NCBI GenBank assembly: GCA_977862235.1
Contig: OZ374557.1
Span: forward strand, 1,922,001 to 1,986,000
Source of the DNA: Dudresnaya verticillata
Lineage: Eukaryota
Length of the DNA: 64,000 nt
Direction: 5' to 3'
Shown: in pieces, positions 6,019-64,000 of the stretch
Numbering within the stretch: position 1 is the first letter of the stretch
Layout: each line of letters starts with the position of its first letter
The notes under the pieces: model-generated
The model's input: the letters and a program-made list of their open reading frames with translations, nothing else
What the model was told of the DNA's origin: nothing
The model's database searches: none
Program-made: the position numbers and the translations under genes

Positions 6019-6036
6019 TTCTAGGTCGGGAGACTA
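6019..6036 (-). promoter_or_regulatory. Primer binding site of element A (TAGTCTCCCGACCTAGAA; TGG mutated to TAG)
   Basis: Lies 1 nt inside the LTR end and matches the PBS of B, C, E and G. Confidence 0.85.
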
Positions 6037-6037
6037 A

Positions 6038-6637
6038 TGTAGCACAACGGGTCCAGCCCAGGAAGAGAAAAAAGAACAAAGGACACCAGTCCGGAACCGT
6101 CGTGCTCACGGGTAGCTCGGGTGTGGTAGAGGCTTGGTAGAATGGCGCTAGGCCAGGAAAAAGGAAAAGGGAAAGGGGGACGCGACCCGGTATTCCGCAG
6201 GGAACCTGCCGTACGGTGACGAGCCTGTAGTTGGCGTCCAAAAAAGGGAACGGGAAGCACCCGGAATCCAGAAAATGGTCAAGACCGAGAAACGCCTCGT
6301 GGGCTTCAATCAGGGGTGCCCTGCTATTCAGGGGACCAATAAATAGGGCTTGTGCCCGTGCTAATACTAACTACTACAGTGTACTGTACACGAATTACAT
6401 TAAGCAATGGGAGGCGGATCTACGCCCCTGTGGCGGCGTATAATCGGGAAATATCCCAGCGCCGCACCAATGATCAGGCGCCAATTGCGTGTCTGAGGCG
6501 CAGATGATTTCGCGCTTGGCGCCAATCACGTGTCGCATCATGGCGCAGCCCAGCAATGACAGCTTCTTACAGGGCATTGGCCCGTTACGACTTACAGCGT
6601 CGAAGGCCCATTTGGCGCAAATCGCCGTTGTGCCACA
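6038..6637 (-). repeat. 5' LTR of element A (600 bp)
   Basis: TG...CA ends with a 13-bp terminal inverted repeat (TGTAGCACAACGG / CCGTTGTGCCACA, 1 mismatch). Adjacent to the PBS. Confidence 0.8.
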
Positions 6638-6813: not shown

Positions 6814-7611
6814 TGTGGTACAAGAACCCGGGGGAAAGCCCCGTTTTATATCGCTACACCCGCTCGCGCGGTGAGTGGAGGACAGTACACGCGGGTCGCC
6901 CGCGACTATAGCCTACGCCGATAACCGGCAGCTTGGATGGGCCTGCGCGCGGATGCCGCGCGTGCAAGATCCGGCCAATGGGCAACGCGCCCTTGGCACG
7001 GTCTGCGCGCACATGCAGCACGCGCCAACAGCACACACGGGCGACACGAACCCACGTGTACACGTGTATATGCGCGCCACATATATCCGAGGGAGTCCTC
7101 GACCGGGTCCGCGCCAGCAATGCGCATCCTTAGATTACACTGATTTACAGTGCGGTGCCAGTATTTCTACGCTAGGTATTTTTTGTGCGATATTTTAGTG
7201 AGCTCGCGGTACGTGCGCATGCCAAGTGTCAACCGCACGGCGCCACACACGCGCACGCATCTCCCGCGGGGGATACTTAGTGTACGGGGTGATCCCCTCT
7301 CACAGTAAAGCGCCAAGCTGGCTTTGGGACCTGAGGATACCCCCAACTTCGCTCGCGGTGACAACACCGTGTGTGACCTGGGTCTACGTACCCTGTTCCA
7401 TTGCTTGTCTTCACGACATTCGCCGACGCAACCGCCATTACCGTTCTACGTGCGCTACAGAACTCCTATGTGGGCCGGGGGTTTACAGTCGACCCCGTCC
7501 AGGTTTCAACTATCCGGGGCACACCCCGTGTCCCTAGCTCTACCCCCATCCGGCGTCGGCCTCACCGCTGTCGCCTGCTACCAACCCGTGGGAGGACCAC
7601 TCGGACTCTGG
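6814..7611 (+). repeat. Partial LTR Y, truncated by element B
   Basis: Begins TGTGGTACAA and contains the shared U5 motifs TTTACAGTC (7482) and GCTCTACC (7537). Confidence 0.6.
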
Positions 7612-8286
7612 TGTGGTGATGCGGCCATTGTGGAGTGCCGACGACGGTTGAGCCGACTCGCGACCGGCGCACCGGTGAGCTGGCGCCAAACACCGAACGG
7701 GAGTGCAGCGACACAGTAGCACTGTACGCCTTGCTGGAGTCTGCGCGCACCACCAATAGGAGCCAAGTAGTTGATTTATTTTTAATTAGGTAATTGTAAT
7801 GATGCTGTACAGTACGTAGTGTCAGCCGGCCAATGAGAATGCCGAGCATGTCCGCAACGGTGACCGGGACCAGTAGGGCCGGACCCACCTGGTGGACCAG
7901 ACCCATTGGGGTCTGGCCCACACGGACCGGACCGCGGGGCGTATCTCCAAGTATATTAATGGGTGGCCACCGCGAGTCCTACAGTAAACAGGTACGCAAC
8001 CCTGGGCAAAGTGACTTACCCTAAGCCCTACCCTCATACTCCTTTACGGTTTCCCCTCGCCAGCCCCGTGCACGGATTCCTCTTACCTCCGTCCCGGTGT
8101 AGCTGTCCTGGCACTGTACCGTCCCCCTTGTCTGTTGCGTCCCTTTACTCCTTACAGGTATTGCCGCTCGAGGTACTCCCTTCGGTCTACGAACTAAGCT
8201 CTACCACCCCGGTGCCGTGTGAGATCACTCCTTATTGGGATTGCCTGATCAGCTCTCCTTACAGGTGTGCCTTTCACTTCACCACA
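7612..8286 (+). repeat. 5' LTR of element B
   Basis: Direct repeat of 18679-19353 (offset 11067, about 19 mismatches counted by eye). Ends TGTGGTGA...TCACCACA. Confidence 0.96.
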
Positions 8287-8292
8287 TCTTTT

Positions 8293-8310
8293 TGGTCTCC
8301 CGACCTAGAA
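8293..8310 (+). promoter_or_regulatory. PBS of element B (TGGTCTCCCGACCTAGAA)
   Basis: TGG-starting 18-mer 6 nt after the LTR end. Confidence 0.9.
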
Positions 8311-15785: not shown

Positions 15786-18391
15786 TTACACCGCATTTCG
15801 TGGACGCTTCGCTGGTGGCGCCAGGTCAGCCTCCGTATCCTCCTCTTTTGCTGCACTCTCCTCCAAGTCGGGAATATCCTCACCATACACCCTTGCGGTA
15901 ATCATGGTGAGTCTCTTACCGGTGTCTGCCATGCGTCGACGCAAAGCGCAAATGGTACGCCGTAGGCGCACCAGACGCCCGACCCACAGCACGGCGGTGT
16001 TAATGGCCTCGTTCGCCGACGCTGGAAGGGGCATGCCCGCATCTCTACACCCTTCGCGGAGTCGCTGCATGGCAGCCCCATCTACGCGCAACTCCGCTTC
16101 GGTCCAACTCGTCATCTCCTTCGGGGCATCCTTTTCTTGTTTCACCACCACGGGGTCGACATTACGGGGTGGCCCTCCACCTGGACCCGCAGCGGTCACA
16201 AACGTCACGGAGTCACTCGACGCGGGCGGCACCAGTTTGGCAGCTTCACCCCGCTTCGGTACAGGGGTCTTCACTGCTACTCCAGGCCGTGTGATCGCGA
16301 GTGCCTCCACTTGGTCGATCCCCGCCGGTGTAGCGTCCTCTTCCATTTCGGAGTCTTCGTGTTCCCCGACGGGGCCCAACTTCGTCGCGGCTGCAGCTAC
16401 TACCGTTGGCTTCTGACAAACTACCGCTACGGTATTCGCCGCCTTGTCCAACTTGGTGTTATTGTTGACCCCCGGCGAGACAGCCAGTTTCGAAGCCCCG
16501 ATTGGTGTGGATGCTGCGGCCACCCCCGACAAACCCCCTGCGCCTCGATCTCCGCTCCTACAGGAGGAGACTCTGTTACGGTCTTCTTGGGCGACGAAGT
16601 CGTGCGGTCGCCCCACACCTTTATGGCTTCTCCACCAGGGGATTCCCTTGGCACGGGGACCCTTGGGTCCCCGCGCACCTTCTCAATCTCGTCAACCCCC
16701 ACTGGCGTAATCTCGTCAGCAGGGGGATTGTCGAGGCGTCCCTGTTGACGCGGCACACCGGATGGAGTACCCCACTCGCGTGACGGCGGAGCCCTTGATG
16801 GCCCCTCCGTCATGGGGTAGAACCTTGAGCGGGAGCGCATCGCGTGCCAGCTTGACATCTTCTCGTCGATTAACCACGCCGGCTCGGGGTCTTCTTCCGA
16901 TAGGAAATACGCCATGCCACACCCGGGGTTGAGCGGCGGCACCGATAACACGCGGTCGTCATCCCAATGATAACCGATGAACCCCGGCGTTCGCTCCCAG
17001 TTGGTGTCTGCGTGAACCGCGAAGAGACGCTCCTCACGCGCCAAGGGGTATTCGGTCCCCTCAACCAACCGGTCTACTCCAACGTGGTGTATAAGGGTAA
17101 CCACCGGCCCGGGTAGCTTGAATAGGCGCCCGCACTCGCCACCTTCTGGATCCGTTCTGCTCCGCGGGTACGCCCTCCAGTCGGTCATCTTGGTATTGGC
17201 TCTAACACCCCGGTAGGTGACCTGTAACCAGGAGAAGAGGACCAACATGGCCCATTCCGCTCGGAGTATCCGACCCAACACCGTCATCAGCGGATGGTCG
17301 ACTGACTTCTCTCCGCCTCGGTGTGCAGCTTGCCAGTCACGATGCTGAATGAACCGATTGGAGAAGTACGCCACCACCGTCGGCGTTGGCACTGACAACC
17401 AACGGGTGACTTCATACTCAGCCCACCAATCCGGAGCGGTGCAGTACAAGCGGCGATGCGCTCCCGGCGGCATCTGGAAGAATTCGTTGGTCCAAGTGTG
17501 TAGTATCGCCCTTCCGAGGCGGCGTCCATCTCTACTCCGCAACCGGAGTCGATGCTCTTTCGCTGCGTCGTCAGCCCACCGTTGCGGATTCCCAAAGCAG
17601 TGAACACCTTGGTCGTATGGTTTGCCATAGCACAGGAAATCGACACCAACCGGATGATCTCGCAGTCGATGGGCCATGGCCAACAATCGACACACCTTAT
17701 CGGGATAGCCTTCTTCTTCCTGACACCTCAACCACACGATGTCACACCCGGTTGGAGTTTGCACTCTACAGTTTGAGTGAATCCACCTGGCTCTCCATAT
17801 CTCCTCACGCCGATTCGGGAACCACTTATTGTTGATTAACCCACCGGCGTCGGTAACAGCACTGTATCGACGCCCCTCGAGGGTGCCACCATAGTTGGAA
17901 ACGAACACCGATACGGGCATGGGGAGACGCACCATATCGCGCTCCTCTTGGATACGCTGACGCCGCCCGGTGCGGTGATCATATTCCCGGCCAGGCCAAG
18001 TTCCCTCATCGGTGTACCCCGTCGAGTCCACACGCCCGTGGCAACTCCCCGGTGTCCCCGGTGTGTATGGCAGTGAACCCGACGGTCCGCCGCCGACACC
18101 CAAGTGGAGTGGGGGTGAGGTTACTCCACCTCCAACCTGATCAACCTGGGGACTTTGCGCGTACGCCTCATATCGCCCATGCGGAGTTGCGCGACGATAC
18201 CTCCCAAGCTCCATCTCGGTTTTGGCCACAGTTGCCTTTTGAAGGACCGGGCCGTTGTGCCCCCGACCACACCTGTCGATCCGGAAGCGGAGTAGACGCC
18301 TGTCGAGCCTCGCAGCCATTGCGCCGTCGCGGCACCCTCGAGCGTCCCGCGCGTGCTGGCAGTGTCGGCGTTGCGCCCGCTGCCGCCGCAA
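15786..18391 (-). CDS. Antisense extra ORF of element B (654-aa ORF plus a frameshifted 276-aa low-complexity tail), unknown function
   Basis: Long ORFs 16427-18391 and 15786-16616 between pol and the PPT. The Trp-rich core aligns by eye with the antisense ORF of element C. Confidence 0.7.
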
Positions 18392-18666
18392 CTCCCGCTA
18401 TGGTGTCCGAGAACCGCCGCCTCCTCCCTCTTCTGCCTCCGGCGCCGGAGCCGCTCCCACCGACGATGCACGCCGTGTCGGTTGGAAGGGGCTCCGTGTG
18501 CGGTCGGTGTTACCGCCGGCCAACGCTAGCGGTACACCGGTTTGGACTTGCCCGTTGATCGACTTGCCTGAAGTGGAGTGCACCGATAAGGCTCGCTCCG
18601 TTGTTGGGTACACGTGAGCGGAGTTGTAGAAGACGTGCTGTGGCGCCCGAGAACGTGTCGCCATTT

Positions 18667-19353: not shown

Positions 19354-20433
19354 GCATTCACGGAATCACTTCGAAATTCGTATTTCTCGATTATTCTCAC
19401 ATAATAGAACCGGATTTTCATTGCGCCCATCAGCTTGGGCAGCTCGGGCCTATTACCCAACAAGCTAATTTCCGACGTTCCAATAAACCATTGTTATTCT
19501 GTCCGGCCGACAGTAATTTGGGCAATTGCTGTGGCTTCCATTTGTTTTTTACCCGTTACAATACAATGGATTGGATTGATTTCAGCTCTGCATCGAACCA
19601 ATCATGGAAGATACCAAGCTGTACCGCAATTTGCAAAAACGACCCTCCCAAATTTAATGATAATAGTACTAAAGTAAAACGGCTTTCTCTTCTTCATTAG
19701 CGAATTACTACATGCACCGTGTGACATGCGCCGTGTCACATTTTGCAGACCCAGTTCCCCTGTGAGAGCTCCGCAATGAGATAGGATCGCAAGGATAGCT
19801 TCTCATATTCTCGTCGGGGCAACTTTACCGGTGCCGGTACGGTCTGTTCAGTTCATGTGGGGGTTTCTCGTGGGCATCACGCTTTCGCATCGGAAACCAA
19901 CGCCCCAGGGGCATCCTACAAGGCGTGCGAGGGCTACCATTGACCCAAACTCCCGGGAACCTCTAATAGGCGAACCTCCGAGGGGTACCCTTTGGGTAGC
20001 GCTAACGGGATTGGTATGCCATGAATGCCATGCTCTTCTTCCCTTTGCCCAAGGCCGTTATCGCAGCGCCGCACCAGCGGAGTGCACTGCAAAATTTGCA
20101 TTGGGACATATCTCGGCGACCGTCGGTTCAGCAACCTCCGGACGCCCTGTATGGTCAAATCTCCGAAACGGCACATCTTCATTCATATCGCGATATTTAT
20201 TCGTTGTGGCCAATCAAATCGATGCGTACCGCTTCGGGGTTTAATGCCTTCATGTCTCACCATCTCCCAGATATATCTCCATTCGGTTCAATATTGTTGC
20301 ACGTTGTGCTATCACCACCGTCTCTACAAAAGCTTTTAGCAGCTAGCTGCCCCAGACACACAGATTTCCGTTGCCGTGCCTTCCGACACAGCATCGATCA
20401 CCTCAGCACCTTGCTTTCTTCCCCGTCAGGACC

Positions 20434-22155
20434 ATGCTGAGGACAATGGCACACAACACCCGAGACCAGAAAGCAACGCAGAGTATCCCGTCCGCACCCC
20501 AGCCCTCAACACACCATCTCTGCTCTGCCAAGGCCCCCACCCCGCCACATGCATCCGCTGCACGTCCTCCCGCCGGCTCCTTTTCCTCAATAACCCCTCC
20601 TCTATTCCATGCACCCCCGACGCAGCAGCAGTCTCCGTCTTTCCACACACATATTTCCTCGCCGATATCCAAAGCCCAGCATCACCACTACCCACCGGCC
20701 ACTCCGGACCTTGTACCACCGCCAGCTCCTGCTGCGCAATCTAAGTGGCGTGTCACTCCCTTGCAGAAAGAAACGCTACTTGCTGCGTTTGCTGAAGACG
20801 CTTATCCGGAGCTGGCGAGAAAGACACAACTCGCTGAGCAGCTCGGTGTCACTACCACACAGATATCCAAGTGGTTTCAGCATCGCCGGGAGAGCCTTAC
20901 CCGATTGGGACAGTTTAAGGCCCAGTACAACCGCACAAGGCGCACCCCGGAGGAGCTCGATGTTTTGCAAAACGCATTTGATATCGATCGGTACCCAACA
21001 GCGGAACGTTTGGCAGAGCTCGAAACGCAACTAACGGGCGTTACGGCTAAGCAAATCAAGCTATGGTTTAAACATAGAAGAAAGCAGGTACAAAAACGCA
21101 ATCGGGCGGTTGCAACGTCCCCTAATCACAGCCCCCTGCTACCGTCCGGGAGCGGCCCTCCCTCAGAGCAGCATTTACAGTCTATGTCGGTTCTGGCACG
21201 CCCAGCTAGCAACCTGCCCATGGTCTCAGAGTGGCAGTCTGCATCATCTGCTCCTGCGAATGTAGTCCCATTGCCTACCCTGCACCATTCTGCAGCCATT
21301 CCAGCTGCTGGTATAATGCAATCAGCTCCTGTTGCTGTGGCGGCGGCGGCAGCCGCAGGAGCCGCTCCCGGTCACAACCCGTACGGCTTCGCTCCACAGT
21401 CATACTACGCCTTCAAAGGTCCACAAGTGCTGTTCGCGACGACTTCACAGTTCTCTGAAGTTGAGTACATGGCGCTAAGGGGAGCATTTGCGGTATCCCA
21501 AGGCATACCCCCAACAGAGGCTGTAATCCGTTTGAGTCAATTATTGAATCGCCCTCAAGCAACTATTACTGAATGGTTTCGGCAAGAAAGCGGAAGAGCA
21601 CAAGATGGTAACCTCGCTGAAGTGCACAACACAATCTTTGCCGCTGCACCCTACGTCCAGCCAGATCAAGGAGGAAGAGCACATGTTGCGAGTGCCTACA
21701 GCGCCCAGCCATTACCAACCGCACAATATAACACGTCAAGCACAGGTGGGCATACCATACTGCAAGGCGAGAATGGGACTAACCTCACCCCCCCGCTGCC
21801 CAGCATCCCAGGTGGCATCCAGTTTGACGCTCAGAAGACATCCACTCCGCGCGAGATTGAAGGAAAAGGTCATGAACATATTTCGGGTACGTCTGCAGCG
21901 AAACAACTACCCGAGAAATACGAAGGTCCTCCGTCAGAAGTCACGCAGCCGGTACCGACTGGAATGTACTCCTCGTATGTCTATCCAGCCGCTATGGCAT
22001 CGCATCCAACGGTACCATTCCCGACAACCCCGTGTTCTGCTTCGCTGTCGGCGCCCATGCTGGCACCACTCCGGTGTATTCCTACTAGCTCGGCAATGCC
22101 GACGTATCCAACAGGATGGTACAGCGCGGCCCCGGCTGGACCTTCCAAGGGCTAA
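20434..22155 (+). CDS. Multi-homeodomain transcription factor (two tandem homeodomains plus a degenerate third), apparently intact and intronless
   Basis: HD1 ...AYPELARKTQLAEQLGVTTTQISKWFQHRR; HD2 RTRRTPEELDVLQNAFDIDRYP...QIKLWFKHRR; HD3-like QFSEVEYMALRGAF...ITEWFRQES. First ATG at 20434 (alternative 20446). Confidence 0.9.
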   Translation: MLRTMAHNTRDQKATQSIPSAPQPSTHHLCSAKAPTPPHASAARPPAGSFSSITPPLFHAPPTQQQSPSFHTHISSPISKAQHHHYPPATPDLVPPPAPAAQSKWRVTPLQKETLLAAFAEDAYPELARKTQLAEQLGVTTTQISKWFQHRRESLTRLGQFKAQYNRTRRTPEELDVLQNAFDIDRYPTAERLAELETQLTGVTAKQIKLWFKHRRKQVQKRNRAVATSPNHSPLLPSGSGPPSEQHLQSMSVLARPASNLPMVSEWQSASSAPANVVPLPTLHHSAAIPAAGIMQSAPVAVAAAAAAGAAPGHNPYGFAPQSYYAFKGPQVLFATTSQFSEVEYMALRGAFAVSQGIPPTEAVIRLSQLLNRPQATITEWFRQESGRAQDGNLAEVHNTIFAAAPYVQPDQGGRAHVASAYSAQPLPTAQYNTSSTGGHTILQGENGTNLTPPLPSIPGGIQFDAQKTSTPREIEGKGHEHISGTSAAKQLPEKYEGPPSEVTQPVPTGMYSSYVYPAAMASHPTVPFPTTPCSASLSAPMLAPLRCIPTSSAMPTYPTGWYSAAPAGPSKG

Positions 22156-22329
22156 TTTCACGAGTGTCTGCAAATATGCAGCCATGCGTCTGTGCCCCAC
22201 CAATCATCAGCATCACTGGCGCACCTTCATTTACTGCACATCATATGATATGCATCGTGACATCGGGATGCGCAACAGGCTGTTGGAAGGACGAATGTGG
22301 CAAATACCGGACAGACAGACATAGGTTGA

Positions 22330-22359
22330 GGGCCTGTCGGAACAGCGAGCTTTTTGCGC
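22330..22359 (+). repeat. Left TIR of the Harbinger element
   Basis: Reverse complement of 44020-44049 with one mismatch. The GGGCC start is typical of PIF TIRs. Confidence 0.92.
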
Positions 22360-23242
22360 GCCCCTCCCCCCTTGCGACTTGGCACAATGCCACTGGTGCG
22401 CCGGCACTTTGCCGGTGATGCGCCAATGTTAAAATAATCAACGCTCGAACCGCGCTCGAGGCGCAAAGCTTACAGTCCTGCGCAGGGACAGCAGTCCGTC
22501 CGGACACTTGTCGCGCTCAGAGGCAATGCCCTCCACGCTCCGTGACCATGCGCAGACACTTGTCGGGTTTCCGTGCGAACACCGGATCCAGATCGAGTGT
22601 TCAAAAAATACAAAAAGTGCGCTCCCCTTCTCGGAAGCTCTTGAAGCCCCGCTCCGGCAAACACAAAGCAACCCACGCCCCCAACCCGCGACGACATTCT
22701 GCAAGACCCCACATTCCTACCTGCCTTCTACTTTTTGCTCGCGGATGCCCCGCGGTTATAACCGCAAGCGTCTTTATCCTTCCGCTTGTCCGCAAAATGT
22801 CGCGTCGCGACGAAGCGCCCGAAGAGCTACATGGCGACACGGCTTCCTCTCCACTTCCCAGACGATCCCCACGACTAACCCGCAAGCGCCCGCGAGATGA
22901 TACTAACTCTCTAGACGAACATCCAGGTCCTGTGTCCCCGATTAAGTATGGTTCTATTGATCAAGGTGCAGTTGTCATTGAGGGACCGCCCTCCATTTCT
23001 GGAGATCCAACTATTGCCCATGTGTACAAAGCCCTCACCGAGCTCACAAAACATGACCTCAGATCTATTGCAAGGCTATGGAATCGAAAGATCAGTGGTG
23101 CAAAGAAAATACTCGTCTACCGGCTTTACCGCTACGTACAGTATCAGGCTCAAGAACTTCAGCGCAATATTTCAGTCGTGGTGCTCAGCCACAAATTCTT
23201 CCCAGACCTCAACGAGCACATGAAGGCATGGGCAGAACAATG

Positions 23243-24144
23243 TATGGTGCAAACGTCAGTGACGATGGACCGACGAGCAGTTCGGGGCTCGGTGGGTAGC
23301 TGCGCCCTTGGCGGTGTGTGGTCCCGCCGTGGGCGACTTGTTGGTAGAGCAAAGGGGCACGCCTTGGGCGGACTGTAAACGCCCGAGGCGGAAAGGAAGG
23401 GAAAAGGAAGAGAAAGGGAACACGTCAAGGACGATGGTAGACGTGGAAGCACGGGAGGTAGACGCTTGAGGCGTAGGCAGCGGTAGAATGCGCGCGTGCG
23501 GAACGGGGAGGTCTGGACCAAGGCCGGCTTGCCCGGGCGTTTACTGTTACGTCTGGGACGGCTTACCTAAGTATAGTACGGCGGTGCGGCGGCGGCGGTG
23601 CGTGCGCGTAGCGCGGGAACTCGGGACACGTGTCTTCCCGAGGCGCGTCTGACAGATCACGCGTTGCATGCAGCCGCGCGCCTGACAGATTACCGTACGA
23701 CCCCCTGTGTGGGTGCTTACACGTACACGTGGACGCGTGTGTCTTACAGCCGTGCGTGCGCGCGCACTGTAGAGCGTGCGCCTTAGATCTAATCCGATAC
23801 TTGTCCGATCCCGATCCTATCCGGATCGGGCCCGCAATGCGAGCACCCGCAGCCTTACAGGCGCGTATCTTACAGCTTAGGCGATCCAGATAGCCAATCT
23901 AGATGCCGGATCCGGATCGCATCCGGATCCGTGTTACAGTGCCCCGGGGCGCCATGTCGGCCCATCACCGTACAGTGCCCGCGTGGCGCGCAGCGCGCAG
24001 TGCGCGCGCGCGCCCCAGTAAGCCGTCGATGACGTGTTCGCGCGCCAACGGCGGTGGTGAACGCCGGTGGCGGTTTCTCCGTCGGTCGACGTATATGGTC
24101 TGCCCGCTTTCAGCGAAAAAGAACTCGCCTCCCCTTGCACCACA
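23243..24144 (-). repeat. Solo LTR of family C (902 bp), inverted, TSD CAATG
   Basis: Reverse complement of 24901-25801. CAATG at 23238-23242 and 24145-24149. Confidence 0.95.
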
Positions 24145-24900: not shown

Positions 24901-25801
24901 TGTGGTGCAAGGGGAGGCGAGCCCTTTTTCGCTGAAAGCGGGCAGACCATATACGCCGACCGACGGAGAAACCGCCACCGGCGCTCACCACTGCCGTTGG
25001 CGCGCAAACACGTCATCGACGGCTACTGGGGCGCGCGCGCGCACTGCGCGCCGCGCGCCACGCGGGCACTGTACGGTGATGCGCCGACATGGCGCCCCGG
25101 GGCACTGCAACACGGATCCGGATGCGATCCGGATCCGGCATCTAGATTGGCTATCTGGATCGCCTAAGCTGTAAGATACGCACCTGTAAGGCTGCGGGTG
25201 CTCGCATTGCTGGCCCGATCCGGATAGGATCGGGATCGGACAAGTACCGGATTAGATCCAAGGCGCACGCTCTACAGTGCGCGCGCACGCACGGCTGTAA
25301 GACACACGCGTCCACGTGTACGTGTAAGCACCCACACAGGGGGTCGTACGGTAATCTGTCAGGCGCGCGGCTGCATGCAACGCGTGATCTGTCAGACGCG
25401 CCTCGGGAAGACACGTGTCCCGAGTTCCCGCGCTACGCGCACGCACCGCCGCCGCCGCACCGCCGTACTATACTTAGGTAAGCCGTCCCAGACGTAACAG
25501 TAAACGCCCGGGCAAGCCGGCCTTGGTCCAGACCTCCCCGTTCCGCACGCGCGCATTCTACCGCTGCCTACGCCTCAAGCGTCTACCTCCCGTGCTTCCA
25601 CGTCTACCATCGTCCTTGACGTGTTCCCTTTCTCTTCCTTTTCCCTTCCTTTCCGCCTCGGGCGTTTACAGTCCGCCCAAGGCGTGCCCCTTTGCTCTAC
25701 CAACAAGTCGCCCACGGCGGGACCACACGTCGCCAAGGGCGCAGCTACCCACCGAGCCCCGAACTGCTCGGCGGTCCATCGTCACCGACGTTTGCACCAC
25801 A
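24901..25801 (+). repeat. 5' LTR of element C
   Basis: Ends TGTGGTGCAA...TTGCACCACA. Near-identical to 37218-38112. Confidence 0.96.
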
Positions 25802-25803
25802 TC

Positions 25804-25821
25804 TGGTCTCCCGACCTGGAA
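25804..25821 (+). promoter_or_regulatory. PBS of element C (TGGTCTCCCGACCTGGAA)
   Basis: 2 nt after the LTR. Its complement reads as a tRNA T-stem and acceptor 3' end: TT CCAGG TCGGGAG A CCA. Confidence 0.92.
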
Positions 25822-34406: not shown

Positions 34407-36708
34407 TCAAGACTCTTTCGTCGCAGACGAACCGGCTGGCACATCCTCGACGCCTTCGGCGGACTCGCGCAACGCCTCTTCGTAGAGGTCGTCCTCCGTC
34501 GTCGACGGTACACTCACGGCAGGAGCCGGGGCGGACCGCAAAGGCCTTGCCACCGCAACTGCCGGAGTGGCTGCAACAGGCGCCGCAGGCGAAAGGGGCG
34601 ACTTATCAATCGCCTTCGGCGTCGTCGCGACGATATCCGCCAAAGGCGATGAAGCAATAACACCCGCCACAGGCGCAGCGCTCAAGCTATCGTCCGCCTT
34701 AGGCGTGGGCACAGCCCCATCCGCTTTAAGCGTAGTCAACGACTCGTCAACCACCTTTGGCGTCAGTTCAGAAACTGTCTTGATGGGCGTCGCCTCTTCA
34801 CTCGCCTTCGGCGTTGTTAATCCGACACCCGTCAATGACGCAGGAGCACCTAGCCCCTTTGGAACCGTCAACGACGCTATAGCGGCATTCGCCTCGCTCG
34901 CCGCAGGCGGTACAGGCATACTAACGTCTTTAGACGCCGGACCATTCGCCTTAGGCGACGAAGGCTTCTCTGCCACACCTTCCTTCGACGCAGAACCTAC
35001 GACACTAGTCGACTTTGGCGCGGCCCACCCTGAGGTGGGACCGCAGCCGACAACGATTGGCTCATCCACTCAGTGGGTGAGCCGCTCAGACCGCTAGTAG
35101 CGACGCCTGCCGCCTGCAATAACTCAAGCACGGTGCGGCGCTGCTCTTCAGTCCAAGCTGGCACCGCAGCTGAACCCCCCGAACCATCTACGACGTTGGA
35201 TACCCCGCCTTGAGGCGTCACGGTCGGCGGAGCCGACTCCAACATTGGCGTCGCCATAACGGCATCGCCATCATCGTCAGCGACGGGAGCCGCAAGGTCA
35301 AGAGGCGCAACAGCTGGCAGTCCAGCTGGCACCCCATCGCCACCGGCAGCACCTCCGGGCAAAGCCGAAGACGCGGGCGCAGGCTCGGCAGTCGACTCAA
35401 CCGCCATAGGCGTAGCGATATCCGTCCCAGACGGGTTCTCCGGTCCGCCATCGGCGTTAAACGCATCCTCCTCGGCCATTAAGGCACGCAAATGCGGAGG
35501 ATAATCACCGACAAAGTCGCAGCTCTTACGCAAACCACGCGGGTGATTACCCGGGGTGAAGCGGTCTGTTTTGCGATGGCGCTCCGCAACGTTCTTCGTC
35601 GTACGACGTTTAGTCCATGGATTATAATGGACCCAATCGCCACAGGCGGAGTGAGTCCGACTCATCGCGAATCGCGGACAGTTCGCCTTACGGCGGTTGT
35701 TTGCATACGGCACCATTGCCGGGTCGTTCCAATCGATCTCATCCGCCACAGCGCGTAGGTTCCAGAACTCCTCGGCGTTCCGGGACCGCCAAATATTTCG
35801 ACTAAGTCGAGGCTGCCAAGCTGAGCCACCACACGCGGGGGTAAGTGGTACATACGGAAGGTGTCATACACCTCCCATAGCCACGCATACGCCACGTTGG
35901 CAACCCACTCCGTGTAAAACACGATCCAGTACCTGGAATATGGGTCGGTTATCAGCTCGGAACCGAGATACGTGACACACGGAGGAAGCTCTACGGAGAA
36001 ACCCTCGCATATCTTAAACTCGCGCCACACCAGCGGTACCTTCAGGAAACAAAACGGTAACTTACTACGCTCAATGCGATCAACCTGTATGTCCTGGTAA
36101 GGCACGAATACGCCCTTTCGGCGACGCGTCTCGCACTCCCACCGGATACAACGCTCCCAAAATAACGTACCCGTACGATGCAAGTAACGAAAATCCGCTT
36201 TCAAGAGTACGCCTAATAGGTAGGCCTCTCCCAACACACGGGGCTCAATTGATACGCTCATATGTTTGAGCGATAGCGTCCCGAGACGATCACCATACTC
36301 GGCTTCGCCGGCTGTGCGGTACTGTCCCGCATCATAATTGAACAGGGGCGGCGTTAACGTCGACCCCGGATAACGCGTGAAGCGACGATACACGTCTGAG
36401 ACGAACTGCGCGTGGACATCCGCACGCGACTGCCCCGCTCGCACCCACAGCCATTCGGCAGGCACGGCACAGCGCAACTTCCATTCCAACGTCGAGAAGA
36501 CGCCGAGGGGCAGATCCCCCGGTAAGAAACCGCTAGCAGCGTAATGGGCGACCAATTCTTCCTCGCGCAAGGCCTCCTGGTCAAACCAGGGGGCCCGCGC
36601 GAAGAAATGCGCGTGATCGCGAGGGTTCTTTCCGACGAAGTCGACCGGCGAAGCGTACACCGGCGCGGCCGAGGGCGCCGCCACTTGCATGCCATTGAAC
36701 ATAGGCAT
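34407..36708 (-). CDS. Antisense extra ORF of element C (348-aa core plus frameshifted 250-aa and 220-aa segments), unknown function
   Basis: Overlapping minus-strand ORFs 35662-36708, 34997-35749 and 34407-35069. The core is homologous to the B antisense ORF and to 63767-64000. Confidence 0.72.
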
Positions 36709-37205
36709 GACGTCAACGACGCGAATACGTTAACGCCAGCGGCGATGTCTCTACAAACGTCAAAGACGGCTCGTGTTCTGCGCCACTGGCGAAAGCTTCA
36801 AGAAGCGTGCGTCGAAGACGATGCCTGTTGTAACGCCTTAGGCGGCGAAAAGAAACTCACGTCAATGACGTTCAACTGCTGCGCCACAGGCGATGCCAAA
36901 GGCAAACGACGTCGATGACGGTTAAGTTGCGACGCCCCAGTCGAGGGATATACAATAGACGTCAGCGACGGAGAACGTTGCGCGCCACGGGCGGTGATGT
37001 CGGGGCAGCGCCAACGCAGTCGCACGAACACAAAAACGCAACATGAGCGGAGTCTTACGGCGCAGCCGAGGTCGCACCGCGCACGTGGGCGCACCAACAC
37101 AATACGCGAAGGCGCGGGGACTCGCTCGCAAGGCGCGAGAGTGGACAGGAACGCAACGGGAGCGCGCACGGCAGCTGGTTGATGGTCGGGTCGTGTTCGC
37201 GTTTT

Positions 37206-37217: not shown

Positions 37218-38112
37218 TGTGGTGCAAGGGGAGGCGAGCCCTTTTTCGCTGAAAGCGGGCAGACCAAATACGTCGACCGACGGAGAAACCGCCACCGGCG
37301 CTCACCACCGCCGTTGGCGCGCGAACACGTCATCGACGGCTTACTGGGGCACGCGCGCGCACTGCGCGCCACGCGGGCACTGTACGGTGATGGGCCGACA
37401 TGGCGCCCCGGGGCACTGTAACACGGATCCGGATGGGATCCGGATCCGGCATCTAGATTGGCTATCTGGATCGCCTAAGCTGTAAGATACGCGCCTGTAA
37501 GGCTGCGGGTGCTCGCATTGCTGGCCCGATCCGGATAGGATCGGGATCGGACAAGTACCGGATTAGATCCAAGGCACACGCTCTACAGTGCGCGCGCACG
37601 CACGGCTGTAAGACACACGCGTCCACGTGTACGTGTAAGCACCCACACAGGGGGTCGTACGGTAATCTGTCAGGCGCGCGGCTGCATGCAACGCGTGATC
37701 TGTCAGACGCGCCTCGGGACGACGCGTGTCCCGAGTTCCCGCGCTACGCGCACGCACCGCCGCCGCCGCACCACCGTACTATACTTAGGTAAGCCGTCCC
37801 AGACGTAACAGTAAACGCCCGGGCAAGCCGGCCTTGGTCCAGACTTCCCCGTTCCGCACGCGCGCATTCTACCGCTGCCTACGGCTCAAGCGTCTACCTC
37901 CCGTGCTTCCACGTCTACCATCGTCCTTGACGTGTTCCCTTTCTCTTCCTTTTCCCTTCCTTTCCGCCTCGGGCGTTTACAGTCCGCCCAAGGCGTGCCC
38001 CTTTGCTCTACCAACAAGTCGCCCACGGCGGGACCACACACCGCCAAGGGCGCAGCTACCCACCGAGCCCCGAACTGCTCGGCGGTCCATCGTCACCGAC
38101 GTTTGCACCACA
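37218..38112 (+). repeat. 3' LTR of element C
   Basis: Direct repeat of 24901-25801 (6 bp shorter net). Confidence 0.96.
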
Positions 38113-42219: not shown

Positions 42220-43549
42220 CTAAGCCGATATAACATCAGGTCGCGCCAATCCCATATCCTTCACAATGTCCACCATTCGATCCCTCAATTTTGACAGAGT
42301 CGTACGACTTGTTCTAGCCGTTTCCAACCGCGACCCTGAGGCCTGTGTTCGGTTCGCAATAATTCCCCTCATCTCCTCAATATACTCCTTCGCTTTCACA
42401 TACCAGTCTTCGGATTGTGAAATAGCGCGAACCATTTCAGAGTAGTCAGTAGAGCGAGGGTTAGACGACCGTTCCTCCATTTCTTCGTCAATAACGAAGT
42501 TGTAAAGCTTCATTGCGAGGCATATGACTCTGCAGTCGACATCAACAGTAAACGCAAGCTTCTGTAGTAGCCTCCATTTAGCAACAAGCATCCCAAAAGC
42601 CTGTTTAACATGCACGCGAAGCGAAGAGTGCCAGAAGTTAAAAGAGTCGTGCCAAAAAGACGCCACAGCTGAAAAAATGGAGTTATGAGCCACTCCGTGC
42701 AGATATATGCCTCATCACCAGCTATCCAAAAGCCAAGCTGTAGAAGTCCAGACGCTAAGCATTGGCCGAGCTTAGAAACAGCGTGCGGAAGGGAGTCGTG
42801 TGTGCTTCCAACGCAAGTCGCAGAGAAAGATAAAAACCGATAGTTAGCATCTACAGTAGCCTGCACCGGAATCGCATAGTAGGCCTTCCTGCACCAGTAT
42901 GCCGCAGGGCTCAGATCGCTTTCCGGTTTCCTTATTTTCACCGCAATCCCGTCCAAGGCACCAATGCATCCAGTTAGCGGACTGGCCGGCTTTCGAGACA
43001 TTGTAAATGCTTCTGAAGCTTCACAAAGGGCATCAGGGCATCATAAGAAGAAGGTAGACCAGGTAGCTGTAAACGCTTGTTAAGACTAATGCAGGTAGAG
43101 TGGAAAACATCATAGACTGTGGATTTGTGGACCTGGAAGAGCGGTACTAAATCCAAATAGCTTGCACCTGACATCATGCGCAAAGTAATACCTAGGCGCA
43201 TTCAGGGGCTTATCGTCGTCCTCCTTGACCGTCTTCCCATCTCAACACTGCGCTGCAGATCGTGCTGCACGACTGCTAACAGCTTGTAGAAGCATCTTCT
43301 TGTCATACGGTAGGCACTGCGAAACATTTCATCACTGTAGAAAGAGGATATCGATTCGAACGTGATGTCAGGGCGTAAAGGATACGGAACGGTGATGTTG
43401 CGTCTGCCCTTCTTGAAGGCCCGAGTGTTTCCCAAGTGTTTGACAACCTTGGCACAAATCGAAAGGACGCTGACTGCGACAAAAATGCGCCTCAAACGTT
43501 TGCTGCGCGCATTTGCATACAGTTCACGCGGAGTTCCCGAGGGGTTCAT
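42220..43549 (-). pseudogene. PIF/Harbinger DDE transposase (HARBI1-like), inactivated
   Basis: YRMTRRCFYKL, HTH-like LRMMSGASY...VHKSTV, CIGALDG, YWCRK, VQATVD, GSTHDS, GDEAY, FNFWHSSLRVHVKQAFG (catalytic E read as K). One stop and two frameshifts. Confidence 0.93.
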
Positions 43550-44019
43550 AGAGACAGGAGGTAGATAAAGTTAGTGAAAGCCGTAGGAGAAACCGTAGAC
43601 GCTTTCCGCGCGGCGCGAGTCTAGGTTCGGCAAAAGAAGGAAGATGGGGACGCTGGTCGTCCCCCTTGTTTTCTCCATGGCCGTCGCGTGCTGTGGCTGC
43701 ACATTTTGCGCTGTTTGCAGCGCGTGGTGCTGCTGATGGATCAAGAGCGGCGGTGGCATTTCGGATGCCTGTGCAGAGCGAACGGGGTTCGCAATCGTTG
43801 CGAGGGCGCCAACGAGGGTTTACAGAGATGGGTCGGTGAGCGGCGGAGGGGGGTTCGTGAAAATAATCTCGCGCCGAAGGGGCGCCGACAGCACAGAAAT
43901 ACGAATCCGGATTAGCACGGTGGGCGGCTTTTCAATACCTGCGCATTACAGCAGCGGAGCGCCGTGGCACTAGAGGGTTTTTTGCAACACTCAACATAAG
44001 ACGGGGGAGGGGGGGCGGG

Positions 44020-44049
44020 GCGCAAAAAGCTGGCTGTTCCGACAGGCCC
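44020..44049 (-). repeat. Right TIR of the Harbinger element
   Basis: Reverse complement of 22330-22359, followed by the TSD TGA. Confidence 0.92.
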
Positions 44050-44218
44050 TGAAACGATGATTCTTTTACGTGCGGACGGTGTGCGGGCCACCTCTAGATA
44101 AGCTAGAGTGCCCTGTCAGCGCGGCGCACAAAATTAACAACTAAACAACAATTATGCAAAAGAAAAGTGCAGACGGCTAGACGCCCCGGCGGGACTCGAA
44201 CTGACGGCACGGCTTGGG

Positions 44219-45422: not shown

Positions 45423-45797
45423 TGTGGTGTAGTGAAAACCCACGAACTCCGTAACGGACAGCTGGCCTAACTTTCCTACACGGGACGAGAGCGACACTAC
45501 CTCCACGGAGTGGTAGAGCAGTTCACACCGAGACGGGAGAACAGCGAGCGGCTAACCGAAACGGATATTGGGAAGCAACAGAAAAGGGGGTGGTACAAGT
45601 GCCGGAACGGAATTCGTAACGGTGGTGGTGGTAGACCGCAACGGGCTCAGCGCGGGGAAATGGTGAAGGAAAGAGCTACGAGGGGATTGAGGCTCAAGGG
45701 TTGCTTGCCCGTTTATCTTAGGAGCCAGTGCCGCTGATATACAAGGCCGGGAGGCACCGAGTGGTCCAGTCCGTGTGGGCCAGACTCTAGTGGTCTG
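45423..45797 (-). repeat. Partial LTR of family E (possibly the 3' LTR of element E)
   Basis: Direct repeat of 57845 to about 58227. Homology stops abruptly at a new TGTGGTACAA terminus. Confidence 0.85.
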
Positions 45798-46552
45798 TGT
45801 GGTACAACGAGCGTTGACACCCTGTAAGGAGCTACGTGGACACGAGTCCTCTGTAAGTAATGGCAGGCGCACAACTGCCCGGGTGATATGGCTGGCTCTC
45901 AAATTGATTTAATTCCTGGAGCGCTCCTGCGCTGTAAGGCAACACGTGTACAGCTTTAATCTTTAAGGCGTACGGTGTGGTATAACGAAGTCCACGGAGA
46001 CGCGGGGAACTCTCGCACTGTAAGGAATGGCCTCGGAGCCTAACGAAGGGCCTCGTAGCCTAACGAAGAAATGAAAAGGGGTGGTAGCGTGGTAGAGCGG
46101 AGCGACCAACACGAAGGACCACGGTGTCAACGTATTCGTGTGCGGAAGGGAGAACTGGAGCGATCGATCACCAGGGATGACTCCGGGTGCGCGGGGCTAT
46201 CGAAAGCGAGGCTCGACCGTATCCGCGGTCACGAAGACGAAGACACCGAACTCGAAGAAACAGGCGTTTACCGAAGACTCCGAGGTCCGGGCGCTAGTCG
46301 CTTACTGGAAACCCTCGGAGGTTGTTTCAGACGACTGGCTAAGTAATACTACGTGAGCACGAATACACGTCAACGCGGGAGATGGTTCGTACTCGAATGA
46401 TTCGTAACGGCCTCGGTGCCAACGAACGGTCGTCTCACGTATGGTTGCGGTTGCGAAGTGATGCATACGGAGGTACACGCGCGACCTGGGTTTCGGTTCC
46501 GTTACGCGCGGGAAACAACGGGAAGATCACGAAGGTGTCAGCGATTTCGTAT
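45798..46552 (-). repeat. Probable LTR fragment Z nested in the E-family LTR
   Basis: TGTGG terminus at the breakpoint. TGGTAGAGCGGAG at 46090 is the reverse-strand form of the shared U5 motif. Confidence 0.5.
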
Positions 46553-47271
46553 TGTGGCGCAAATCGCCTCCGCACCCTACTGAAGAATTCTTCATAATGG
46601 GCGTCGCCCGCGGCTCACGCGACTGCGGACGACGGGCCGCAACGGCCGATACACGCAGATCATCCCCTGCTCTCATTTTTGAGCTCGGAGCCAATTTCGC
46701 TGCCGCAACGGGCTCCCCCGACACGCGCGAGCACCAACAATGACATTGGGGAAATTCCCCTGTAAGCCGTCCCGACGGACAGCTCCCGACACCGGCCGCC
46801 AGCAAGGATGGCCCCTCGACACTACAACTCGCACTCGTGTGCGCGTGCGCTCCTTCAGCGCATGCTGCCAGACCACGCTGTCAAGAGGCTGACAGTTGAT
46901 ATTTTAGTAATTATAGATTTTGTGCACCACGCGATGCCAAGTGGCGCGGCCCCCTTTCACTATTACAATCCGCCACCAAGGCGCACCCGCCTTGTATATA
47001 GTATATTAGGGCCCTGAGGTGCGCCCTCATACAATAAACAGCCAAGCTTGGGCCCAGCGCGAGATATCCTCCTACCCTATCGACTCCGTCACTGGACTGG
47101 ACTCCAGTACGTACGCTACCCTTCTTCATCGTACAGAATCCTGTTTTCTCTTACTTTTCCTTTGTTTTCTTCCCTTTCTAGGGTAACCCCCTTTTCTTGG
47201 TCTTGTAGTGTTTTACAGTCGCGCTACGGGGCTATTCCCCTGCTCTACCGCTACCTCTACCTCACGCTACA
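46553..47271 (+). repeat. LTR F (719 bp), same family as the LTR of element H; no PBS and no TSD
   Basis: Ends TGTGGCG...CGCTACA. Inverted homolog at about 62908-63601. Confidence 0.82.
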
Positions 47272-50202: not shown

Positions 50203-50275
50203 CTAGGGGGACTGGGGTTCCACCCCGGAGCCCCCCGAGCATCCGAAAACTGAGGGTAGCAACCCCCTTGGCGCG

Positions 50276-57821: not shown

Positions 57822-57839
57822 TTCTAGGTTGGGAGACCA
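57822..57839 (-). promoter_or_regulatory. PBS of element E (TGGTCTCCCAACCTAGAA)
   Basis: 5 nt inside the LTR end at 57845. Confidence 0.88.
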
Positions 57840-58731: not shown

Positions 58732-59493
58732 TGTAGTGCAAAGATATTGCCCCTTTTCGTGTTACCACATGATCAGCGCGTTACTCGCGAAGGCGTACAC
58801 ACGTGTGCTCGTTAGGTAGCACACGTGGCCACGCCGGCCCACTTCGGATGTGCGCAGCCCATTCTGGGCCTGCCCGCGCGCGCTCCTATTATTTACATTT
58901 CCCTTTACAGTATTCGACACCCAGTGTACACTAGGTACATTGAGGTGTCAGTGTTAGTTTATTTTGGGTAGTCTATGGTAGCCCTAGCTATCCTACCGCC
59001 GTGGCCAGGGACTTAAGGCGAGTAGCGCCGGCCACCCTCAGTAAACCAACCTGAAGCATGGGCTCTGCAGCTGAGTTCCCCCGCGCCTGACCCACGAGCT
59101 CGTTGCTCGGCGTCACCGCGGGCTAAGGCTAGCGCAACCCGTACCAACCGCCTGCCCGACGCTCCCTCCGCGAACCTCCCTGCTGCTCCTCCCCGCGCCG
59201 CGCTCGGCTCCCTTCATTTCCCCGTTTCTACCTCTCCAGCACACCCCTTCCGATCCTCCCCTTATCCCTTCATCCTCCCTTCACCTTTGGCGTCTACGCC
59301 CCTACACTGGTGTTTACACCTACTTTTGGCGCCCACGCCCACACACAACCCGACTGTGTTTACAGTCCGCCGCCGGATTGCTTCCTAGCTCTACCACCGC
59401 GTTTACGCGATACTCACGCGTGATCGCGCAGCTACCCTCCCAAGCCCGAACTCTCGGGGGTGTTCTACAGCCGCGTACGGCCATTGCACCATA
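58732..59493 (+). repeat. 5' LTR of element G (762 bp)
   Basis: Ends TGTAGTGCAA...TTGCACCATA, carries the shared U5 motifs and is followed by a PBS. Confidence 0.78.
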
Positions 59494-59495
59494 TC

Positions 59496-59513
59496 TGGTC
59501 TCCCGACCTAGAA
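59496..59513 (+). promoter_or_regulatory. PBS of element G (TGGTCTCCCGACCTAGAA)
   Basis: 2 nt after the LTR end. Confidence 0.9.
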
Positions 59514-62907: not shown

Positions 62908-64000
62908 GTAGCAGGTGAGGTAGTAGCGGTAGAGCAGGGGAGTAGCCCCGTAGTGCGACTGTAAAACACTACAAGACCGAGAAAGGGGGTTACCCTAGAA
63001 AGAAAGAGAAAACAAAGAAAAAATAAGAGAAAAACAGGATTCTGTACGATGAAGAAGGGTAGTGGATGTACTGGAGTCCAGCCTAGAGAGGGAGTCGATA
63101 GGGTAGGAGGGTACGTCTCACTGGGCCCAAGCTTGGCCGTTTACTGTACGAGGGCGCACCTCAGGGCCCTAATATACTATGTAGGAGGCGGGTGCGCCTT
63201 GGTGGCGGATTAAGGTAGTGGAAGGGGGGCGCGCCACTTGGCATTACGTGGCGTGGGCAAGTCTATAATTATCTACTAAAATATCAACTGTCAGCCTGTT
63301 GGTAGTGTGGCTTGACAGTGTGCGTGTACGCGTTGTCGCCTTGCGGGGCCATCCTTGCTGGCAGGGGGCGTCGGGCACTGTCAGGCCGGGTGCCTTACAG
63401 GGGCACTTCCCCAGTGTCATTGCTGGTGTATACGCGTGGTGCCAGAGCTTATTACAGGAATTGGCTCTAAGCTCAGACATCCGCACAGCGGTTGATCCGC
63501 AGGAACCGGCCACTGGGCGTCCGTCGTCCGCAGTCGCGTGAGCCGCGGGTACGGCATTATGAAGAATTCTTCAGAAGGGCGCGAAGGCGATTTGCGCCAC
63601 ATCTCCCCCCCGTTAAGCGGCGAGTACTCGCACGAGCCCACACGAGCAGACCCACCCTTCGCAGGTCGGAGCTCCGGTGCCTGTTTCCGGCGCTACTGCG
63701 GTGGCAGCGTGTTTTTTTGCGGAGTCCCGCGTGTCGGCCCCGTTACACGGCATCCTACGTCGGGCAATGCCGCCGAACGTCTCACTGGCGGAGCTAGACC
63801 GCGTGCTTTTGCGCGCCCCGCAGACATCTCCATCTTATCCAACACCAGCCGAGTTTGAAGGCAAGACGCCTTGGCGCGACCTTATTGAGTTCGCGAACGC
63901 CCCGTGGATGTTCCACAATAATTTTGGGAACCATGCTCTCATCGAGCAGTATGTCTCGGAAGACGGCTTCCTTCCTGGGAAGCTTCCCCTGCGCGTATTA
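62908..64000 (-). mobile_element. 3' end of Gypsy element H: 3' LTR (about 62908-63601), PPT (63602-63611) and 3' internal region running off the window
   Basis: The LTR is homologous to 46553-47271. On the minus strand GGGGGGGAGA directly precedes TGTGGCGC. Confidence 0.85.
63767..64000 (+). pseudogene. Start of the antisense extra ORF of element H (partial, one frameshift)
   Basis: My translation, SYPTPAEFEGKTPWRDLIEFANAPW / LIEQYVSEDGFLPGKLPLRV, matches the N-terminus of the C antisense ORF. Confidence 0.72.

Follow-up and report, generated by a model that had tools for sequence, protein, structure and literature searches.

The long terminal repeats (LTRs) of chromodomain retrotransposons from Dudresnaya verticillata contain, upstream of a primer-binding site (PBS) of tRNA-Tyr type, two short words antisense to the conserved core of tRNA-Tyr: a D box facing positions ~17-27 and an anticodon box facing positions 29-38. 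The first-pass annotation had proposed this complementarity; the words recur in families picked by their PBS alone and are specific in strand and position, as judged with proxy tRNAs. On this pattern we consider it probable that the boxes pair with the primer tRNA-Tyr and, with a little less assurance, rather likely that they act in primer placement, i.e. that they capture, unfold and position tRNA-Tyr for reverse transcription. The comparisons below argue that the boxes are a real, selected feature like the known extended primer contacts, with an anatomy of their own. The modules are optional and their order is variable.

The window, i.e. the whole 64-kb stretch of DNA analysed, is a cluster of LTR retrotransposons with reverse transcriptase (RT), RNase H, integrase and chromodomain. 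Elements B and C match the Pfam families RVT_1, RT_RNaseH, rve and Chromo, with a pol order of RT, RNase H, integrase and C-terminal chromodomain; the elements of the window are Ty3/gypsy LTR retrotransposons with a chromodomain. Element C has an LTR pair with TG...CA ends, a PBS after the 5′ LTR and a purine tract before the 3′ LTR. The 5-bp target duplication is clear at a solo LTR of family C and is offset by 2 nt at the full-length element. In an RT tree from which named chromovirus reference elements are absent and in which a Chondrus crispus protein is present, sequences of the window, of the records G001 and JADWZK01 (see below) and of Chondrus crispus form one clade (15 of 30 rows, support 93). 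Of the best 120 RT homologues, a single one is named, and it comes from Chondrus crispus. Searches of the viral contigs for relatives of the RT gave 0 and 1. Between pol and the 3′ LTR, elements B and C carry long antisense open reading frames (16427-18397 and 34997-36729, minus strand; 656 aa, and 355 and 288 aa), which have no Pfam match and are mutually dissimilar. LTR F (46553-47270) ends after its D box and is followed by an A-like gag (47800-51334) without LTR end or PBS, a junction whose sequence reads as a deletion or a recombinant. A host gene with two homeodomain stretches lies amid the retrotransposons (20347-22155, plus strand); its named homologues come from Gracilaria domingensis and Agarophyton chilense (Gracilariales). 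Together with the Chondrus crispus homologue, they point to a florideophyte red alga as host. The window also contains 51-nt inverted repeats (22320-22370 and 44009-44059), an open reading frame that we take to resemble a piece of a Harbinger-type transposase (42510-43040, minus strand) and, in the gag region of A, a palindrome (4894-4978) with a sub-threshold Rfam microRNA match on both strands, probably by chance.

The 18-nt PBS is kept in five elements of the window (A, B, C, E and G; Table 1). By complementarity, it implies a tRNA 3′ end bearing A73 and G72, which we take to be the eukaryotic Tyr identity set. Its first 10 nt are common to a probe for yeast tRNA-Tyr positions 59-76 (PMC12168002, excerpt); the supplement of that paper lists no red-algal names. 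There are no tRNA genes within the window, and no tRNA gene with a 3′ end matching the PBS was found in the viral contigs, the genome contigs, 257 + 85 + 3 genomes or the 47 PBS loci described below. A core-pattern search of the viral contigs, in which the pattern itself fixed the core, gave 50 tRNA-Tyr genes, 48 with U20 and 2 with C20. G001 contains one nuclear-type tRNA-Tyr gene (L241) with an intron at 37/38, which was rejected as the primer because its acceptor stem differs and was kept as a proxy. Since none of these genes matches the PBS, they are proxies only, and all pairing was computed with proxy tRNA-Tyr genes whose acceptor stems mismatch this PBS. The core sequence of tRNA-Tyr has been given as a plant tRNA probe (PMC2475607, excerpt).

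All positions reported earlier for the two boxes hold: the anticodon box TTTACAGTC at 7482, 25665, 47212 and 59359 on the plus and at 62957 on the minus strand, the D box GCTCTACC at 7537, 8198, 25694, 47242 and 59388 (plus) and at 45512, 46091 and 62928 (minus), and the motif of LTR Z, TGGTAGAGCGGAG, at 46090-46102. Two more LTR copies of C, missed in the first pass, carry both boxes (37976/38005, plus; 23371/23343, minus). Raw totals for the window, 8 TTTACAGTC against 0.39 expected and 12 GCTCTACC against 1.74 expected, are inflated by the extra copies of C and by the related LTRs F and H, which are 79-94% alike; three box-word matches (21174, 28013, 53738) lie within coding DNA. After clustering to six window families, the D box was present in 6/6 as CTCTACC and in 5/6 as GCTCTAC, and TACAGTC in 3/6. 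The D box has a mismatch in the 3′ LTR copy of B (19265) and in the PBS-adjacent 5′ LTR copy of E (57934). The description of these LTRs as unrelated is correct for most pairs, whose U5 identities are near the shuffled level; it fails for B-E (0.71) and C-G (0.62), and C-H shows a weak excess (0.59 against ~0.53 shuffled).

Table 1. Positions of LTR, primer-binding and box features in the window
Feature	Position	Strand	Basis or remark
5′ LTR of element C, TG...CA ends	24901..25801	+	97% identity to 3′ LTR 37218-38112
TATA-like box of LTR C	25469..25476	+	sequence; function putative
CAGTAAA of LTR C, likely start site and UAAA poly(A) signal	25498..25504	+	putative
Anticodon hairpin of C, 5-bp stem GGGCG/CGCCC	25660..25678	+	loop 25665-25673 = TTTACAGTC, antisense to tRNA-Tyr 30-38
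D box of C, 16 nt	25689..25704	+	could pair with tRNA-Tyr ~15-30, 2 G-U; core GCTCTACC 25694-25701
PBS of C, 18 nt, Tyr type, self-folding as 4-bp hairpin	25804..25821	+	A73/G72 match
Anticodon and D box in 3′ LTR of C	37976..38012	+	sequence match
Both boxes in solo LTR of family C, 5-bp target duplication	23343..23379	-	sequence match
Boxes of element G	59359..59395	+	anticodon box 59359-59367, D box 59388-59395
PBS of G	59496..59513	+	sequence match
Hairpin of LTR F, 13-14 bp, with D box	47199..47249	+	loop 47212-47220 = TTTACAGTC
D box of LTR F	47242-47249	+	sequence match
Hairpin of LTR H, 13 bp, with D box	62928..62978	-	loop 62957-62965
D box of LTR H	62928-62935	-	sequence match
Hairpin and D box of LTR Y	7478..7544	+	looped anticodon box 7482-7490
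D box of LTR Y	7537-7544	+	sequence match
D box of element B, 5′ LTR	8198..8205	+	sequence match
PBS of B	8293..8310	+	sequence match
D box of E, 3′ LTR	45512..45519	-	sequence match
PBS of E, one mismatch	57822..57839	-	sequence match
D box of LTR Z, 13 nt	46090..46102	-	perfect antisense to tRNA-Tyr ~17-29
Partial D boxes of element A, two of 8 nt	6125..6144	-	absent from first-pass annotation
PBS of A, one mismatch	6019..6036	-	sequence match

A metagenome scan by PBS alone yielded 47 loci, of which 33 from JADWZK01 and 2 from OFEW01 were kept; the remaining 12 were in other records, lacked protein likeness to the set and were dropped as chance matches. Eight kept loci without a protein match (L006, L010, L013, L018, L028, L040, L033 and L044) were assigned by source record and LTR-like end. 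With L002, L006 and L040 set aside as too short, clustering gave 13 JADWZK01 and 2 OFEW01 families. G001 has ten contigs with close RT relatives and five with the PBS, which gave two further families (L235 and L237 were too short). The longest member represented each family regardless of motifs, and the total was 23 families, 17 of them outside the window. G001 is a bacterial species bin with many eukaryotic contigs (L149-L159, L241, L263-L273), among them contigs with Gypsy elements, with Copia elements and with a tRNA cluster of nuclear type. One of its Copia elements (L265, G001:C142) has a PBS like an initiator-Met half-tRNA site, AGTAAA after a TATA box and a CTAC-rich leader.

Outside the window, the D box in the form GCTCT[AG]C, whose G variant was defined post hoc from the same data, as were GAT[CT]TAC and CTA[AG]GGA, was found in 7/17 families against 0.96 expected (0/400 shuffles). 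TACAGTC occurred in 3/17 (0.21 expected; 1/400 shuffles), and 12/17 had a D box or an anticodon-type word (1.37 expected). The D box was confined to positions -140 to -50 on the plus strand (5/6 window and 7/17 outside families), with no occurrence on the minus strand or in adjacent bins. De novo counting of 8-mers between -220 and -8 in 21 families returned TTACAGTC, GCTCTGCC and GCTCTACC in five families each (0.09, 0.15 and 0.15 expected). For the 13 JADWZK01 families, GCTCTGCC reached 4 and TACAGTCC 3, where some 8-mer reaches 4 in 5/300 shuffles. GAT[CT]TAC was enriched as well (5/17) but is kept only as a lead, since it forms part of a palindromic stem in the L005 family. When the U5 regions were compared for complementarity to 24 tRNAs, Tyr ranked first both for the window, with z 6.7, and for the outside families, where its z of 2.9 is only a little above the 2.5 of Asp, and the reverse strand and upstream regions gave no tRNA complementarity signal. 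The D box is not Tyr-specific, because tRNAs sharing the D-loop nearly equal Tyr in the window (Asn 6.2, Ala 6.1, Lys 6.0). By duplex energy, the anticodon-arm signal had a Stouffer score of 3.9 in JADWZK01 and of 2.9 in the window, where the upstream control reaches 2.4; it was absent in G001 (-1.0) and OFEW01 (-1.7).

The D box lies 50-140 nt upstream of the PBS on the sense strand (one at -204), the anticodon box 28-139 nt inside the LTR, and a TGG-type PBS follows the LTR. Matches to the tRNA extend in different directions family by family; perfect matches reach 13 nt in Z and in L013, while L239 has 12 nt and C has 16 nt with two G-U pairs. In several families the match runs over the 37/38 splice junction of the proxy gene, and L013 has a nearly contiguous antisense of tRNA-Tyr positions 18-45. 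The base opposite G26 is A in 6, U in 6 and C in 5 cases and never G, and that opposite G27 is U in 9, C in 6 and A in 2. A fixed order, anticodon box before D box, had been proposed together with conservation of the three-part arrangement across the clade, and neither proposal is supported in that form. The order holds in C, G, F/H, Y and L013, and L004/L042, L010 and Z have it the other way round; both boxes are present in only 6/23 families, and neither in 5/17 outside representatives. None of the 23 families has a T-loop box (anti-T-loop word), and downstream of the PBS there was no clear signal of boxes, with Tyr at z 2.1 and other tRNAs scoring as high as 2.3. Support was lacking for a third box facing tRNA positions 8-14, which occurred in only 1/23 families; where AGCT follows the D box, it extends the match over 14-17. 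The L231 family (G001:C50), which has no upstream anticodon box, contains an 11-nt perfect antisense to tRNA-Tyr 31-41, located 41 nt after the PBS start. Many U5s have the word GCTACC after the D box (e.g. 25744-25750 and 47250-47255; 6/17 outside families, 1.33 expected), which keeps its A in records whose D box has G and is possibly a packaging or dimer signal.

Predicted folds showed a further property of the anticodon box. In C the box is exactly the 9-nt loop of a hairpin. In local minimum free energy folds TACAGTC was located in a hairpin loop in 7/7 families against 0.66 expected with random flanks (P 5 × 10−8), and strict stems enclosed it in 5/7 (P 1 × 10−4); the four JADWZK01 cases were examined after the hairpin idea came from C. 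Of the other TACAGT words in the window, 4/48 were enclosed in a loop. The stems are built from different pairs in different families: where F has a U-G pair, H has U-A, and L018 retains the L004 hairpin with other pairs and one loop change. The stem of L013 is partly the complement of the tRNA stem. The best folds of G, with three closing pairs only, and of Z do not place the box in a loop, and a looser motif gave a weak loop signal (4/17 against 1.8 expected, 8/100 shuffles). Folding predicts that an 8-9-nt hairpin loop displays the anticodon box, which is centred on the Tyr codon UAC. The D box was a hairpin loop in 1/14 cases only and is predicted to be mostly single-stranded. Accessibility of the boxes was not taken as a separate line of support, since words low in G form few pairs in any case. 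Other hairpin loops with a UAC-centred word occur at the JADWZK01/OFEW01 loci L003, L014, L022, L028, L033 and L039 and are possible shorter anticodon modules.

The PBS is predicted to close on itself by 4 bp (-4.9 kcal/mol), with a pairing probability that averages 0.87 across 20 families, suggesting a need for help at the annealing step. Calculated for unmodified RNA with tertiary structure ignored, box duplexes with the proxy arms have energies of about -16 to -31 kcal/mol compared with -3.9 and -2.7 for the tRNA arms themselves. In the mechanism we propose, the loop of the anticodon box would make the first loop-loop contact with tRNA-Tyr's anticodon loop, and the D box would invade the D arm and break the L-shape of the tRNA. 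The freed 3′ end of the tRNA would then displace the PBS hairpin, probably with Gag as chaperone, and the box contacts would later be stripped by reverse transcriptase while it copies U5. Since full pairing of a nine-base loop would cause strain, the likely path would begin with loop-loop nucleation and continue with opening.

The same sequence evidence would be obtained if the boxes paired with tRNA-Tyr for packaging, or with a second tRNA that bridges two genomes into a dimer, and left initiation unaffected. Sites 50-140 nt upstream in variable order are easier to reach if the tRNA is untethered, many tRNAs fit the D box, and primer packaging in Ty1 reportedly requires a cis domain outside the PBS (work cited in PMC3592414, excerpt). 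The anticodon box, however, shares its specificity for this tRNA with the PBS, the self-closed PBS places the need at annealing, and the upstream contacts of HIV-1 act on initiation (PMC13191261, excerpt). We regard a role in packaging or dimerization of this kind as unlikely.

The tRNA-Tyr reading of the first-pass annotation gains support also from repeats with other primers. Among 25 of these, which are direct-repeat ends of other Ty3/gypsy loci from other hosts, some of them near-copies and a few not true LTRs, the D box was found in 0/25 and an anticodon-type word in 1/25. Two same-bin elements with another PBS also had no boxes (0/2), a same-host control that is small with just two elements. 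Three Leu-primed control families showed just 7-9-nt matches to their own primer and no common box. These comparisons bear on the possibility that the boxes are host signals unrelated to tRNA, in which case TTTACAG would serve as a protein site or a 3′ splice site and GCTCTACC would be one instance of a CTAC-rich leader element. Pyrimidine tracts do precede the box in C, F and H, TTACAG is present in U3 on both strands, and CTAC(C) is in general excess in the leaders here, with CTACC in excess in all leaders tested, including that of a same-bin Copia element with another primer. Y, L004 and L013 lack the preceding tract, however, and TC follows TACAG in 6/16 U5 cases compared with 1/15 and 0/22 in upstream DNA. 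Host signals would moreover leave unexplained the hairpin with unrelated stems in 7/7 families, the 11-13-nt extensions along the tRNA and the absence from other-primer repeats, which makes them an improbable explanation.

The base of the D box that faces tRNA position 20 differs between records. It is A in 6/6 window and 2/2 G001 families (one of the latter also has a G-type site) and G (GCTCTGC) in 6/13 JADWZK01 families, none of which has A, and in 1/2 OFEW01 families (A/G split by record, Fisher P 1.6 × 10−4). In a gag tree of 22 rows the JADWZK01 elements are scattered, and grouping of the four G-type rows, a group named from the motif, was rejected (AU P 0.002). Outside the box in JADWZK01, CTGCC was not enriched (8 vs 6.2), whereas CTACC was (12 vs 5.1). 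G pairs with C20 or, by wobble, with U20, and A pairs only with U20; both kinds of tRNA-Tyr gene exist in the viral contigs (48/50 and 2/50). The simplest reading is that the position-20 variant tracks the host tRNA across element lineages, which predicts a U20/C20 difference between tRNAs. The base at position 20 is frequently dihydrouridine, and pairing may be weaker for that reason. Position 20 is among the commonly modified tRNA positions (PMC13191261, excerpt).

A different origin would be a decayed antisense tRNA piece that was captured once in an ancestral LTR, as in Helenus, and was kept by descent or as a Pol III promoter. The nearly contiguous antisense of L013, the order and similar spacing common to C, G, F/H and Y, and the placement of all elements in one RT clade (support 93) are compatible with such a capture, and tRNA-like LTR segments have been described (PMC10886601, excerpt). 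But the order is reversed in several families and the spacing varies, the flanks have diverged to the shuffled level while the boxes persist, B-box-like words occur in just 2/23 families, and the partner of position 20 follows the record and not the lineage. A single capture is accordingly very improbable.

TATA-like words are located 32-34 nt before TAAA in B, C, H and Y, and CAGTAA[AG] is found in 5/6 window families at -299 to -332 from the PBS/LTR end. This site holds the sole TAAA in the last 420 nt of 6/8 window LTRs; A and G have none. C. merolae, also a red alga, uses UAAA as its poly(A) signal, on average 17 nt before the cut (PMC8831791, excerpt). The TAAA near -300 together with this signal suggests that R is probably short and that the boxes lie in U5, with less force outside the window. 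Regulation of Gag translation by tRNA-Tyr or its 5′ halves as a T-box-like ligand, or a function of the boxes as targets of host tRNA fragments, would suit their place in the 5′ untranslated leader and the Tyr codon in the predicted loop, but is highly unlikely, as an Rfam search of the window gave no relevant match and no T-box-like fold, the bound tRNA would be the primer species, and host silencing targets are expected to be lost and not kept.

Beyond primer placement, which we prefer for the boxes, this red-algal clade might repeatedly have evolved a modular, codon-displaying kissing hairpin and a D-loop invader, with lineages re-tuning the D box to host base 20. We offer this wider scenario tentatively and give it slightly less than an even chance; if it is true, primer co-adaptation can be read from genomes alone. 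Searches of the open-access literature yielded no description of such an arrangement in red algae or chromodomain elements. Primer-template contacts outside the PBS have been documented in few laboratory systems (HIV-1, RSV, FIV, Ty1 and Ty3), and some are disputed. Here, diverged families keep tRNA-complementary words, one in a loop with exchanged stems and the other varying by host, which amounts to a natural compensatory experiment. Confirmation would provide a simple natural model for the selection and opening of a primer by a retroelement, a yes/no prediction on a host tRNA base, and grounds to screen other retroelement clades for hidden primer contacts.

The arrangement shares features with several known primer systems and differs from each. 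In the half-tRNA priming of Copia, Ty5 and fungal Helenus, the complement of the anticodon loop is the PBS directly after the LTR; antisense of the spliced tRNA-Tyr anticodon loop near the LTR end is common to fungal Copia and Helenus and to the elements described here (PMC10886601, excerpt), in which it lies inside the LTR and a normal 3′-end PBS follows. Helenus and TRIMp3 likewise have tRNA-related sequence inside their LTRs, in Helenus as Pol III boxes A and B of non-autonomous elements (PMC10886601, excerpt), whereas our elements carry short separate antisense pieces, rarely have a B-box-like word (2/23 families) and encode gag and pol. Bipartite sites are used by Ty1 and Ty3, and RSV and FIV also pair outside the PBS (PMC5371799, excerpt). 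In Ty1, several short boxes (0, 1 and 2.1) pair with the primer outside the PBS (PMC3592414 and PMC5371799, excerpts), of which the predicted contact of box 2.1 was not confirmed inside particles (PMC3592414, excerpt). The Ty1 PBS comprises 10 nt, the primer is tRNA-iMet and the extra contacts are at and downstream of the PBS (same excerpts), in contrast to the 18-nt PBS and the upstream boxes within the LTR found here. Ty3 belongs to the same superfamily, and the T and D arms of its primer contact RNA outside the 5′ PBS; the second part of its site is ~4800 nt away in the 3′ untranslated end (PMC5371799, excerpt), while both boxes here probably lie in the 5′ U5 and the PBS is complete. A short or split PBS completed by T-arm pairing, as in Ty1 and Ty3, is not seen in these elements, given the full 18 nt and the lack of an anti-T-loop word in the 23 families. 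In HIV-1, an upstream A-rich loop faces the anticodon loop of tRNA-Lys3 and the PAS faces the T arm (PMC13191261, excerpt). Our elements differ as Ty3/gypsy elements with tRNA-Tyr, in the 8-10-nt anticodon-arm match within a dedicated hairpin with exchangeable stems, in a second contact to the D-loop with no T-loop match, in sites 30-200 nt upstream and in support that is computational only. With HIV-1 they share a full 18-nt PBS with upstream contacts and, as predicted with the proxy tRNA, a loop of the genomic RNA matched to the anticodon loop of the primer.
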